A stretch of 64,000 nt of DNA from Escherichia coli. Lineage in GTDB: Bacteria > Pseudomonadota > Gammaproteobacteria > Enterobacterales > Enterobacteriaceae. A program made the position numbers and the translations under genes. Location of the stretch: assembly GCF_009931435.1 (NCBI RefSeq), contig NZ_CP043414.1; one strand, given 5' to 3'. Of the stretch, positions 32,010 through 43,457 are shown one piece after another (position 1 is the stretch's first letter; each line of letters opens with the position of its first letter). The notes beneath the pieces are model-generated. The model was not told where the DNA came from, searched no databases, and saw only the letters and a list, made by a program, of their open reading frames with translations.

Positions 32010-33309
32010 TTACACTGGTGTGTTCAGCAAATCGTTAACGGCATCAGATGCCGGGTTACCTGCAGCCAGCGGTGCCGGTGCCCCCTGCATCAGACGATCC
32101 AGCGCAGTGTCACTGCGCGCCTGTGCACTCTGTGGTGCAGCTGCCAGAATGCGGCGGGCCGTTTCCACGGTCATACCGGGGGTTTCGGCCAGCACGCGTG
32201 CCTGTTCTTCGCGTCCGTGAGCCTCCTCACAGTTGAGGATCCCCATAATGCGACTGTTTTCTGCCGCAACCGCTGCGGTGATCTGCGCGTTCACGTCCGG
32301 CTGCGCCGCGCTGGCGTTCTCGCCCTCCGTCGCTTGCACCACGCCAGTAACGTCAGCCTGCGAAGCAGTGGCTGAAACAGTTGTTGATTGAGTCTCTTTG
32401 GTCATTCGCCCTCCTGAGAGACGGGATTTACGTGCATCCAGTGCATCACGCATGACGGTGATCGCATCGGTACTGTTAACAAGTTCATCAGCCAGTCCGG
32501 CATCAATGGCCTCCTGACCGCTGTACACTGCAGCCTCGGTATCCAGCACAGCCTGCACGGACAGGCCGGTATATGCCGACACCTTCTGTGCAAACATCCG
32601 GCGGGTTGCATCCATCCGGGACTGCAGTGTTTCCCGGACATCATCCGGTAGATGGCTGTAGGGGTTGCCATCCACCTTATGGCTGCCGCTGTAAATCAGC
32701 GTGATTTCCACGCCCTGTTTCTCCAGCGCAGCACCGTAATTACTGTGAGCCATCATGACGCCGATGGAGCCTGTCCGGGCGGTCTGCGTGACCAGACGTC
32801 GGGAGGCGGCGCTGGCAAGCAACTGACCTGCACTGCAGTTCATGTCGTTGGCCAGCGCCCATACCGGCTTTATGTCACGCACACGGGCGATGATGTCAGC
32901 GCAGTCAAATGCCCCTGCCACCATCCCGCCTGGCGTATCCATATCGAGCAGAATGCCGTCCACCATCGGGTCGCTGGCAGCCTGTTGCAGACGGGCGATA
33001 ATGCCGTTGTAACCGGTCATCCCCGAATACGGCTGCAGCGCCCGTGTCCGGCTGACCAGCGTGCCGGAAACCGGCAGCACGGCGATGCCGTTCATGACCT
33101 GATAACTGCGGGCCTGTCGTGGTCCGTCATCATCAACGGATAACGCCAGCGCCGCGGGTGCCTCTCCGGCAGTCAGGCTGTCGCCGGATACCGCATCCGT
33201 CAGGCGGCTGATCCCAAGCTGGCCTGCAAGCGCACAAAAGAAAACCCGCGCATAGGCGGGTTCAAGCATCAGCGGCTCATTAAAGGCCATACTGGCAATA
33301 TGCGGGAGA

Positions 33310-39496: not shown

Positions 39497-39790
39497 ATGA
39501 AAAAAATGCTACTCGCTACTGCGCTGGCCCTGCTTATTACAGGATGTGCTCAACAGACATTTACTGTTCAAAACAAACAGACAGCAGTAGCACCAAAGGA
39601 AACCATCACCCATCATTTCTTCGTTTCTGGAATTGGGCAGAAGAAAACTGTCGATGCAGCTAAAATTTGTGGCGGCGCAGAAAATGTTGTTAAAACAGAA
39701 ACCCAGCAAACATTCGTAAATGGATTGCTCGGTTTTATTACTTTAGGCATTTATACTCCGCTGGAAGCGCGTGTGTATTGCTCAAAATAA
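39497..39790 (+). CDS. bor: Bor lipoprotein (serum resistance)
   Basis: ORF track 97 aa; lipobox LITGC; recognised Bor sequence. Confidence 0.9.
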   Translation: MKKMLLATALALLITGCAQQTFTVQNKQTAVAPKETITHHFFVSGIGQKKTVDAAKICGGAENVVKTETQQTFVNGLLGFITLGIYTPLEARVYCSK

Positions 39791-39821: not shown

Positions 39822-40283
39822 CTATCTGCACTGCTCATTAATATACTTCTGGGTTCCTTCCAGTTGTTTTTGCATAGTGATCAGCCTCTCTCTGAGGGTG
39901 AAATAATCCCGTTCAGCGGTGTCTGCCAGTCGGGGGGAGGCTGCATTATCCACGCCGGAGGCCGTGGTGGCTTCACGCACTGACTGACAGACTGCTTTGA
40001 TGTGCAACCGACGACGACCAGCGGCAACATCATCACGCAGAGCATCATTTTCAGCTTTCGCATCAGCTAACTCCTTCGTGTATTTTGCATCGAGCGCAGC
40101 AACATCACGCTGACGCATCTGCATGTCAGTAATTGCCGCGTTCGCTAGCTTCAGTTCTCTGGCATTTTTGTCGCGCTGGACTTTGTAGGCGATTGCGTTA
40201 TCACGGTAATGATTGACCGCCCATGACAGGCTGACGATGATGCAGATAATCAGAGCGGATATAATCGCGGTTACTCTGCTCAC
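39822..40283 (-). CDS. Rz: Spanin inner membrane subunit Rz
   Basis: ORF track 39822..40295; 153-aa product if started at the GTG overlapping the R stop (GTGA); N-terminal TM plus coiled coil. Confidence 0.85.
39881..40063 (-). CDS. Rz1: Spanin outer membrane lipoprotein Rz1, embedded in Rz in another frame
   Basis: ORF track 60 aa; lipobox VVGC; proline-rich; nested inside Rz. Confidence 0.85.
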
Positions 40284-40777
40284 TGTTGCCCCCACAAACA
40301 GACTTCACGCTCAATCTCACGACGAGTCATCAGGCCTTTCCATTGCTTACCGCCAGCGTATGTCCAGCGACGCAGCTGATCACATGCGCCTTTGATATCG
40401 CCCTGGTTTATTTTGCGAAGAAGCGTCGATGTTCTAAAATTGCCAGCACCCACGTTGTAAACGAATGAGTAAAGAGCGCCGCGCGTTGTTTCCGGTATAT
40501 CGACTTTGATATACGGGTTAATTTGTCTGGCGACAGTGGCAAGGTCTTTATTCAAGAGTGCTTTGCATTCTGCTTTGGTATACGTTTTACCGAGCATGAT
40601 GTCTTTTCCGGTGTGTCCGTGACATACAGTCCATACACCAACAATATCTTTGTATGGTATGTAGCTGACACCTTCCAGACCATCGTTACCACTTGGGCCA
40701 GTGATTAACACTGATGCTATAGCAATTGCTCCGCCACCAATAGCAGCAGCAACGGCTTTTCGTAATGATGGAGGCAT
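40280..40777 (-). CDS. R: SAR endolysin (lysozyme with N-terminal signal-arrest-release segment, phage 21 R-like)
   Basis: ORF track 165 aa; hydrophobic Gly/Ala-rich N-terminus followed by lysozyme-type domain. Confidence 0.88.
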
Positions 40778-40992
40778 TATTCACCTCTCGCAGCCTTGCG
40801 CTTATCTTCTTTAATCTTGAAATAAAGGTTTGTCAGGTACGTCAGCAGGCCAAATACCAGGCTACCCAGCACACCTATTGCTGCCCACTGTGAGGGAGTG
40901 ACTTTATCTAGCAGCTGTAAAAACCAGTACCCGGCACTACCTGCTGAGGTGCCATAGGCGACACCCGTTGTTAACTTATCCATGGATTTCAT
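40777..40992 (-). CDS. S: Pinholin (phage 21 S-like) with dual-start motif MKSM
   Basis: ORF track 71 aa; two TM segments; Met1 and Met4 starts. Confidence 0.88.
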
Positions 40993-41108
40993 AACCCCAC
41001 CTCGCAGACAAAGCGGGTGTAAATTGAGGGAATACTACGAAACGTAACAGACTCGGAGTCAGTGAATAACTCAGGTATTGGGTTATCAGCTAATATCGAG
41101 ACTCAAAA

Positions 41109-41140
41109 AATGGAAAAACCCGCTCGACGGCGGGTTTAAG
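41109..41140 (-). terminator. Intrinsic terminator-like hairpin on the late-gene strand, about 115 bp upstream of S
   Basis: Reverse strand reads cccgccgtcgagcggg followed by a T-run. Confidence 0.5.
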
Positions 41141-41564
41141 CTGTGTGACGAAGTAACCACTCTTAACAGCATAACCAATTTTTTACGTACGTAAACCACT
41201 AAATGATATTTGAGAGAATGCTACCGAGTATTGAAAACACCACTACAAATACATAAGCAAATCTCAACAAATAACCAAAAAATAATTTCCAGTGTTATTT
41301 TTAGCCGGTTTAAATTGAACCTTCAAATTATAGAACACTTATAAATAACAGCCGTTAATATAAATTGGCTAATAGATTTATTTTTATTCAGCCAAGAGCC
41401 ATGAATAGGATTCGATAGAAAAAAGTTCAGATAAAAATAGAGATCTACTTCACAAATCAAACGAGAAACCAAAACTTACATCTTGAAATAATCACATTGA
41501 TTAGATGAATATTTATCGCGCAGTGACATCATTTTTTAATAATAGTTCAAAAAAAGGGCTCACG

Positions 41565-42662
41565 ATGAAAAAATTAACAGTGGCAATTTCTGCTGTAGCT
41601 GCATCAGTACTGATGGCGATGTCTGCTCAGGCAGCTGAAATTTATAATAAAGACAGTAACAAGCTGGATCTGTACGGGAAAGTTAATGCTAAGCACTACT
41701 TCTCCTCTAATGATGCAGATGATGGTGATACTACTTATGCCCGTCTTGGCTTCAAAGGTGAAACCCAAATCAACGATCAACTGACTGGTTTCGGTCAGTG
41801 GGAATATGAATTCAAAGGCAACCGCGCTGAATCTCAAGGTTCCTCCAAAGATAAAACCCGTCTTGCCTTCGCTGGCCTGAAATTCGGTGACTACGGCTCC
41901 ATCGATTACGGCCGTAACTACGGTGTAGCATACGACATCGGTGCGTGGACTGACGTCCTGCCAGAATTCGGTGGTGACACTTGGACTCAAACCGACGTGT
42001 TCATGACTCAACGTGCAACTGGTGTTGCAACCTATCGTAACAACGACTTCTTTGGTCTGGTTGATGGTCTGAACTTTGCTGCTCAGTACCAAGGCAAAAA
42101 CGATCGTAGCGATTTCGATAACTACACTGAAGGTAACGGTGATGGCTTCGGTTTCTCTGCTACCTATGAATACGAAGGATTCGGTATCGGTGCAACTTAT
42201 GCGAAATCTGATCGTACCGACACTCAAGTTAATGCAGGGAAAGTTCTTCCTGAAGTATTTGCTTCCGGTAAAAATGCAGAAGTTTGGGCCGCAGGTCTGA
42301 AATATGACGCTAACAACATTTACCTGGCCACTACCTATTCTGAAACCCAGAATATGACTGTATTTGCTGATCACTTCGTTGCTAATAAAGCCCAAAACTT
42401 CGAAGCTGTTGCACAATATCAGTTCGATTTCGGTCTGCGTCCGTCCGTTGCTTACCTGCAATCTAAAGGTAAGGATCTTGGAGTATGGGGCGATCAGGAC
42501 TTAGTCAAATATGTTGATGTAGGTGCAACCTATTACTTCAACAAAAATATGTCTACTTTCGTTGATTACAAAATCAACCTGCTTGACAAAAATGACTTCA
42601 CTAAAGCACTCGGTGTAAGCACTGATGACATCGTTGCTGTAGGTCTGGTTTACCAGTTCTAA
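41565..42662 (+). CDS. nmpC: Outer membrane porin NmpC (OmpC/OmpD family), intact
   Basis: ORF track 41505..42662; start at MKKLTVAIS with signal peptide; C-terminal Phe; no IS interruption. Confidence 0.9.
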
Positions 42663-42851
42663 TCTGATTACGAAAAAGATATGTTGCGGGAGGCGTTGCC
42701 TCCCCAACATATAAGTGGCTCCCTCAAGCCACTTCCTTTAGAAGCACAACCTTGCTTCTAACTATATAAACCTTCTGTTATATATTACCCTTTATTTTTG
42801 GGGGCGTCTCAACGCCCCATTTTTAATAATTTTTAGTAAACAATTGGCATA

Positions 42852-43235
42852 TTAATTAGAGTTATTAACAACGATATCCATCTCTAACCGGATATCTAAT
42901 GCCATTAACATCCCTTCAATTATGCCCTCAGCCTTCTGTAACCTTTTCCCGATATAACCATCAGAGCAGCAATGCTTACCTGCCAGTGACATGAATGTCA
43001 TACCGACTACATAATAATCTACTAATAAATCGTGCAAATCGCTGTTGTTCTTTTTCAGACGGGCCATGCACCCGCAAATGATCATCGCGTCATCGTCACA
43101 ACATTGCGGGCGAGATTTTACTTTTGAAGTAATTAATCCCTTAAAACCGGCGGCAATGGACGACCAGGTCACATCTTCATGATTATTAGCCGCCCACGCT
43201 CCCCAACGCTCAAGAACCATCTGAATATCACGCAT
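42852..43235 (-). CDS. quuD: Late gene antiterminator Q (QuuD-like)
   Basis: ORF track 42852..43250; internal Met gives 127 aa; Cys-rich zinc-binding region. Confidence 0.82.
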
Positions 43236-43457
43236 CAACTTACTCCACAAAAATCAGACCAGAACGCCAATTACAAGCAAAAATCAACAAAACAGTATTA
43301 GTTGATTGTTATCTCTGACTTCATACTCCTGCTCCTGTCAGGGTTTTGGCGTAATTCTTCAGTATTCGGTAATCGGTCAAAACAGAACCGGGGAAACGAT
43401 ATAAGCGCAGACGCCCCCAGCGGTGGCGAAGAAGTTCTGCCATATTAAACTCAAACA

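Follow-up and report, generated by a model that had tools for sequence, protein, structure and literature searches.

A compact late-control cassette predicted 1.69 kb from its Q gene in a DLP12-type prophage region of Escherichia coli

A 64,000-nucleotide stretch of Escherichia coli DNA (contig NZ_CP043414.1; this whole stretch is hereafter called the window) contains a lambdoid late-control region of the DLP12/PA-2 type, in which the Q antiterminator gene and the S-R-Rz lysis genes, all on the minus strand, are separated by an intact porin gene on the plus strand. This quuD–porin–essD architecture is confirmed here and was known before, and control of the lysis cassette by Q has already been published. 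A preliminary description of the window placed the late promoter of the region at a minus-strand TATAAT hexamer (41327..41332). Comparison with the Shiga toxin (Stx) phages suggests instead that the late promoter most likely lies ~165 bases downstream of that hexamer. The account that emerges is one of a compact minus-strand late cassette at 41105..41195, on which Q acts remotely and from which it is separated by the porin module as cargo; we give this account as a whole a probability of about 0.75. The coordinates of the features are collected in Table 1.

The placement of the promoter is based on homology. A DNA search with 41000..41560 as the query returned two classes of matches, namely porin-bearing phages, which match throughout, and ~320 other records, mostly Stx phages, which match only 41114..41196. 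Over this shorter segment the minus strand is 77–78% identical to 933W, VT1-Sakai and ~280 records of Stx and related phages (identity band 60–80%), while query positions 1–364 of the search match porin-bearing phage records alone. In 933W and VT1-Sakai the matched part is annotated as the pR' putative late promoter, the Q-utilization site (qut) and the first rho-independent terminator, and it overlaps the end of Q. The position of the start site can be derived from the Stx phages of strain Sakai, for which differential RNA sequencing (dRNA-seq) mapped the PR' start and Term-seq the 3' end, with 258 nt between them (PMC7547250). The second terminator of 933W ends at locus position 1793, which puts the +1 at 1534–1536 and hence at 41163–41161 of the window; the coordinates of the Sakai paper are offset by ~140 from NC_002695.2, and the start site is accurate to about ±2 nt. 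Furthermore, a weight-matrix scan of the minus strand over 41090..41640 ranks TTTACG-16-TATGCT first when an AT-rich background is used and third with a uniform background. The initial transcribed segment is near-invariant in at least 130 loci with Q proteins that are 41–100% identical, although 21 of its positions were fixed by the search pattern, which imposes much of this invariance.

The second line of evidence concerns the palindrome TTTACGTACGTAAA, which covers the −35 hexamer and the upstream part of the spacer and is the candidate Q-binding element. The palindrome and the transcribed motif occur once each in the 64-kb window, at 41153..41195. A collection of viral contigs was scanned for the transcribed motif TAAGAGTGGTTACWTYGYCAC, and at least 120 loci were recovered. 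Among the matches listed, to which the counts that follow also refer, an upstream Q was usable in 112 loci, a set that includes the window and phage records; in each of these a PF06530 Q homologue of 41–100% identity is encoded ahead of the motif on the same strand. The motif lies 17–48 nt from the Q stop codon in 21 of these loci and 0.5–3.0 kb from it in the remaining 91. The Q proteins were clustered at 75% identity and then compared with the DNA over the −35 and spacer. The clade containing the Q proteins of the window and 933W is paired with TTTAC(G/A)nnCGTAAA (57/57 loci), the second clade with GCGTACGC (22/22), the third with GCGGTCCGC (22/22) and the fourth with GTTATAAC (7/7). The element type matches the Q clade in 108/108 loci of these four large clades whatever the distance of Q, and the co-variation is perfect across all 112 loci with Q 17 nt to 3 kb away; these loci are related by descent, however, and linkage contributes to the association. 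Each clade's element is followed by an A-tract. Within one clade, loci in which Q is adjacent and loci in which it is separated by cargo have an identical element, and the transcribed segment is unchanged. This pattern is what would be expected of a Q-binding element paired with a pause segment recognized by the host. The palindromic symmetry of the candidate fits as well, because 82Q is thought to bind its Q-binding element (QBE) as a dimer within the promoter (PMC4914094). A full-text literature search for the motif sequence returned nothing relevant.

The preliminary description had predicted a Q-utilization site remote from Q and near S, within 41140..41360, and this prediction agrees with the candidate palindrome at 41182..41195 and a pause predicted at 41138..41139. 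Beyond the window, the clade-specific palindromes offer candidates for the Q-binding element in five Q clades simultaneously. Since the candidate element is palindromic, it also reads as a −35-like TTTACG on the plus strand; GATATT lies 17 bp beyond it (41182..41210), which makes a promoter-like arrangement directed towards the porin gene.

Transcription from the predicted promoter would soon reach a tR'-like intrinsic terminator. A terminator scan detects the stem at 41137..41116, followed by TTCCATTTTT; counted from the predicted start, the terminator falls at +27..+48. Taken alone, the scan result is not significant (3 terminators found versus 1.9 ± 1.4 expected); the hairpin is considered real because 31 distinct porin-type sequences conserve it at 98–100% and because its homologue in 933W is the first hairpin after pR'. 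The hairpin alone has a folding free energy (dG) of −12.0 kcal/mol, and the +1..+59 RNA folds with a z score of −2.2 relative to shuffles. In 22 distinct sequences 98.5% of the pair cells are paired, and co-variation is thin, with one compensatory change of a C-G to a U-A pair, in two sequences. Some divergent loci have an unrelated GC-rich hairpin and T-run at the same place or a few bases further on. The proposal in the preliminary description that this hairpin terminates the unit is thus supported by its conservation, and both the hairpin with its T-run (41105..41137) and the TATAAT are present ~210 nt apart, as it had reported. The lambda-6S-sized RNA of ~200 nt that it derived from this spacing is not supported, because the distance between the homology-predicted +1 (41161..41163) and the T-run (41115..41105) gives a terminated RNA of ~50–60 nt. 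Scanning 40800..43400 against Rfam by E-value produced two matches only, both below threshold and attributable to chance. A further 26-nt match (92%) to the 933W leader hairpin, at 33238..33263 on the minus strand, was rejected as chance, as it lies within a long open reading frame (ORF) resembling a head protease (...EPAYARVFF...).

These results suggest the following mechanism. A sigma-70 promoter (TTTACG, 16 bp, TATGCT) directly upstream of the holin gene would fire at ~41161..41163, and polymerase would, when Q is absent, halt at the hairpin and T-run (41137..41105) to give a leader of ~50–60 nt. Q, encoded 1.69 kb upstream, would diffuse to the site, bind the palindrome over the −35 and spacer, and load onto polymerase that has paused in the conserved transcribed segment after ~25 nt. 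Polymerase carrying Q would resist termination, allowing expression of S, R, Rz and the morphogenetic genes. The porin gene would be an autonomous antisense moron, equipped with an upstream region and 3' terminators of its own, that fills the interval between the last conserved Q codons and the palindrome. What the sequences show directly is homology, conservation, co-variation and the positions of the junctions; the use of this start site, the pause, the binding of Q to the palindrome and the efficiency of termination are inferred. Plaque-forming phages carry the same arrangement, including the 434B hybrid, in which the porin gene contains IS5. Reporters, northern probes and deletions would be best aimed at 41105..41195, and an RNA of ~50–60 nt would be missed by standard RNA-seq.

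In addition to the imposed invariance and the common descent described above, several observations weigh against the late cassette at 41105..41195. The promoter matches only 8 of 12 consensus positions and was overlooked by a consensus scan, which found no promoter anywhere in 41100..41560. The −10-like TACTTC in the transcribed segment has A at position 2 but C at position 6, where a pause element usually has T; the 933W counterpart is TACATT. At least 13 porin-type loci (L097, L085 and L093 are examples) have GCTGG for GCGGG in the 3' arm of the hairpin (41116..41123), a change that weakens it from −12.0 to −5.8 kcal/mol and may result in higher basal expression of the lysis genes in those prophages. 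The transcript of Stx lysogens passes the homologous first hairpin and ends at the second terminator, at +258 (PMC7547250), so the first hairpin may be leaky, and the terminator scan finds no second terminator ahead of S in the window. Finally, Q-independent sigma-E transcription also enters the cassette. In K-12 the sigma-E (RpoE) start of the lysis cassette maps to ~41516 on the minus strand, ~355 nt upstream of the predicted +1, as back-calculated from the primers and the '-121 to +650' amplicon in PMC7918800. Transcripts from ~41516 would also meet the leader hairpin. The 3'-end-mapping supplement of a Storz-lab preprint has no essD, nmpC or quuD entries. A sigma-E-like GAACT-N17-TCACT stands at 41516..41549 on the minus strand, just upstream of the deduced +1, and overlaps the 5' region of the porin gene on the other strand.

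The Sakai +258 end and the GCTGG loci also speak for an alternative in which the hairpin at 41116..41137 is not an effective terminator and lysis is controlled by the sigma-E promoter, by H-NS silencing or at the translation of S; published control of the K-12 cassette by sigma-E, pH and osmolarity (PMC7918800) points the same way. We regard this alternative as unlikely. Standard RNA-seq libraries usually fail to retain RNAs shorter than 60 nt, and the Stx data are therefore compatible with termination at the first hairpin. Additionally, a hairpin and T-run are kept, or swapped for another hairpin, in nearly all loci listed, a terminator at this distance is documented in phage 21, and the lack of a second terminator ahead of S means that an intact prophage needs this one.

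The promoter proposed in the preliminary description would start at the TATAAT and produce a 6S-like RNA of ~200–210 nt ending at the same hairpin, with the Q site near 41300..41330. The hexamer is a perfect −10, the AT-rich DNA upstream of it could serve as an UP element, and it ranks third to sixth among the minus-strand candidates of the weight-matrix scan. The hexamer is also kept in 29 of the 31 distinct porin-type intergenic sequences despite variable flanks, within the least conserved part of the region, and this retention suggests some function. In opposition to this placement, the TATAAT has neither a usable −35 (ACGGCT at 17 bp) nor an extended −10, and such hexamers are no more frequent in the window than expected by chance (30, versus 27.7 ± 5.2 in shuffles). 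The hypothetical 221-nt RNA from this site has no excess structure, folding no better than shuffles (z −0.38). Furthermore, the DNA around the hexamer is found only in porin-bearing phages, and the same Q clade works without it in 933W and PhiR40_1; the alignment to 933W and Sakai puts the promoter at 41195..41168. The region is dense in promoter-like sequence, and in K-12 the DNA between nmpC and essD figures among the H-NS-bound 'promoter islands' (PMC3661553). Conservation of the hexamer fits a regulatory site of the divergent porin promoter equally well, because the AT-rich motifs around it show the same pattern of conservation. Consequently, a late promoter at the TATAAT is considered improbable, and a role for the hexamer as a secondary promoter is likewise given a low probability. 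Across 41285..41375, conserved AT-rich blocks (TTATTTAT, CTATAATT, AATTTAAA and CTAAAAATAAC) alternate with hypervariable blocks of 5–9 bp, which sort into about three haplotypes. The AT-rich blocks look more like phased protein-binding sites for the divergent porin promoter than like parts of a late promoter.

A late promoter directly downstream of Q, at 42700..42850, from which transcripts would cross the porin gene in antisense, was the outcome that the preliminary description had named as contrary to its account. Such a position is the usual one for pR' in lambda, 21 and 933W, and Q-modified polymerase would ignore the hairpins found there. The consensus scan detects no promoter-like site in this interval, however, and 42663..42851 does not align with the 933W pR'. 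The palindrome and transcribed motif are absent downstream of Q, their single occurrence in the window being that described above, and the DNA abutting the Q stop codon differs with each cargo class, where it forms the terminator hairpin of the antisense cargo. This position is disfavoured and highly improbable.

The late cassette at 41105..41195 and Q are thus separated by DNA whose two junctions can be examined across loci. Among cargo classes that accompany the Q clade of the window, similarity begins 0–2 nt upstream of TTTAC; on the Q side it stops right after the LEMD codons, and the last few Q codons vary by cargo class. In the window the last 8 Q codons (42875..42852), past the conserved LEMD motif, are cargo-junction sequence. 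A GC-rich hairpin, serving as 3' terminator for the antisense cargo, follows Q within 5–40 nt in every cargo class. The porin module of the window accordingly spans ~42875 to 41197 and includes the terminator at 42801..42818 and ~370 bp of upstream DNA. In 933W, by comparison, the Q stop codon is inside the palindrome; overlap of the Q stop with the promoter unit is seen in this phage and in 10 related loci. The porin module has the characters of a moron, with its own terminator, its own upstream DNA and flanks that are contiguous in 933W. The module would be expected to be expressed from the repressed prophage, as lc/nmpC is in lysogens.

The gap between Q and the palindrome holds at least 32 cargo classes; of those listed, 26 are antisense only, 4 are sense and 2 are mixed. 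The cargoes have a G+C fraction of 0.31–0.46. Besides the porin, they include products that match defence models for known or candidate defence proteins, namely a KAP NTPase (PDC-S20), a methylase with an HEC-04/OLD-like ATPase, NsnA/PD-T4-2, PDC-M53A and PDC-S42. Many cargoes have no PADLOC match, among them several two-gene sets of ~390 + 400 amino acids (aa). SfII, PhiR40_1, Stx1_499 and phi467 are named phages with cargo in this position. Cargo, mostly antisense, recurs in the Q-to-pR' gap. The claim of the preliminary description that nmpC was inserted between Q and its target needs some rewording: the porin module does occupy the gap and 'inserted' is reasonable, but a better description is that of a fixed slot at which many cargoes, the porin among them, are exchanged. 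A more tentative extension is that lambdoid phages with PF06530-type Q proteins possess a dedicated cargo slot, between the LEMD-coding end of Q and the near-invariant pR' segment, in which antisense orientation acts as a built-in switch. Cargo would then be on in the lysogen and insulated from Q-modified late transcription; once the phage is induced, antiterminated early transcription through Q would converge on the cargo and silence it. This extension is possible, though we consider it doubtful at present. A limited literature search found no published description of the cargo slot, and the Q-to-pR' slot is a place to seek prophage cargo, defence genes included.

Table 1. Features of the late-control region in the window and loci with cargo in the Q-to-pR' gap.
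Feature	Position	Strand	Basis or remark
Candidate Q-binding palindrome TTTACGTACGTAAA over −35 and upstream spacer	41182..41195	−	
Predicted −35, TTTACG	41195..41190	−	Alignment to 933W
Predicted spacer, 16 bp	41189..41174	−	
Predicted −10, TATGCT (933W pR': TATCAT)	41173..41168	−	Alignment to 933W annotated 'pR'; putative late promoter'
Predicted +1	~41161..41163	−	Homology to mapped Stx-phage PR' start
Initial transcribed segment AAGAGTGGTTACTTCGTCACACAGCTT, beginning AAGAGTGGTTAC from 41164	41138..41164	−	
−10-like TACTTC in transcribed segment	41155..41150	−	~+9..+14
Predicted pause-site U residues, +25/+26	41139/41138	−	Position inferred
Intrinsic terminator, tR'-like: stem AAACCCGC/GCGGGTTT (41137..41116), then TTCCATTTTTT	41105..41137	−	
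Q antiterminator gene (quuD type)	42852..43235	−	ORF, 127 aa; PF06530 E 3.9e-53
rusA, ylcG		−	Upstream of Q
Porin gene, nmpC/lc type, intact	41565..42662	+	ORF from ATG 41565, 365 aa
Porin-module 3' flank	42663..42851		Run of GC-rich hairpins (terminator scan, sequence reading)
Terminator in porin 3' flank, then ATTTTTAATA	42801..42818	+	Terminator scan
Porin-module upstream regulatory region	41197..41564		~28% G+C; holds the TATAAT
S21-type pinholin, dual start (40992 and 40983)	40777..40992	−	ORF and annotation of identical segment
Signal-anchor-release (SAR) endolysin	40280..40777	−	
Rz	39822..40283	−	Nested Rz1 39881..40063
Cargo loci between Q and pR' motif	L009, L011, L013, L018, L028, L029, L043, L050		
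Further cargo loci between Q and pR' motif	L059, L073, L076, L089, L105, L107, L129		

The genes of the region were identified by ORF calls and profile matches, and the coordinates and strands given for Q, nmpC and S-R-Rz in the preliminary description are correct. The Q protein is a full-length member of PF06530 (phrog_79 E 1e-52) and a distant match to the Q21 structures 6jnx and 6p18 (E 7.6e-7). It is 78% identical to the Q protein of 933W and 78–81% identical across the Q proteins of 933W and the Stx phages. The porin ORF matches phrog_410 over its full length (1–365 of 365), and the gene is antisense to both Q and the late genes. Annotation of the lysis cassette was taken from the identical segment in phage 434B and strain 1428. 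The identical copy in strain 1428 belongs to a full-length prophage in which terminase, head and tail genes follow downstream. With phage 434B, whose porin gene is the one interrupted by IS5, the segment shares 99.9% identity over the part of that phage that derives from DLP12. Most of the segment is carried by 36 phage records, and the order quuD, porin, essD occurs in 2397 of 5426 complete E. coli genomes according to RefSeq annotation. The gene order as such therefore matters little, being standard in DLP12-like prophages of nearly half of complete E. coli genomes. A gene for a Bor/Iss-type lipoprotein lies directly after Rz in antisense (39497..39790, plus strand) and is a second antisense cargo gene in the late unit.

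The closest relatives of the region are the DLP12 (qsr') prophage of K-12 and phage PA-2, which have the same genes in the same order, quuD, nmpC/lc and essD. A passage of PMC7918800 that cites Rueggeberg 2013 describes the DLP12 lysis operon as being under the control of a Q-type antiterminator, and RpoE and this antiterminator are reported regulators of the operon. The K-12 prophage differs in having IS5 in nmpC and a truncated late region, whereas the porin gene of the window is intact. The Stx phages 933W, VT1-Sakai and Sp5 share the TTTACGnnCGTAAA palindrome, the position of the −10 and the AAGAGTGGTTAC motif, with 77–78% identity from the −35 to the end of the hairpin. In contrast to 933W, where the unit overlaps the Q stop codon, the unit of the window is 1.69 kb away behind the antisense porin module. 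The −10-like elements of the two also differ, as noted above (TACATT in 933W, TACTTC in the window). Additionally, 933W has a second terminator at +258 and the small RNA StxS; the window matches leader positions 1–49 only, and neither the 3' 74-nt segment of StxS nor the tR' at +258 was found in it.

Phage 21 offers a similar arrangement with no DNA similarity. Its QBE lies between the −35 and −10, in the same place as the palindrome of the window; a pause element occupies the first bases transcribed, and a terminator, annotated as spanning +3..+50, is reached within ~50 nt. The Q21 QBE is a direct repeat (ATTGAGCA/AATGAGCA), whereas the candidate in the window is a palindrome, and the sigma-dependent pause element (SDPE) of phage 21 is annotated at +2..+8, compared with ~+9..+14 for the −10-like element in the window. 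The lambda pR'/6S unit and the phage 82 pR' combine a constitutive late promoter with a promoter-proximal sigma-dependent pause and a terminator that is reached early (PMC5001585, PMC4914094). Lambda 6S RNA has a length of 194 nt, in contrast to the ~50–60 nt predicted for the window. The Q82-type unit of phage 434 (locus L133, 3500..3560) ends in a hairpin, AAACCCGCTGCCGAGTGGGTTTTTTTT, that is similar to the one in the window, and an early terminator may be a module common to unrelated Q families. An assignment of the 933W-type unit as the phage 82 pR', which GCC and a U at +25 had seemed to fit, was rejected, as the Q82-type protein of phage 434 belongs to an unrelated family and the transcribed sequence of that phage is different; no similarity was found between the Q protein of the window and the Q82-type protein of phage 434 (229 aa).

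The moron concept comes from comparisons of HK97 and HK022. Similar to the lambdoid morons bor, lom and stx, the porin module is autonomous, brings its own upstream region and its own terminator, and lies between phage genes. The porin gene differs in being antisense and upstream of the late promoter, whereas stx is in the sense orientation and downstream of tR'.

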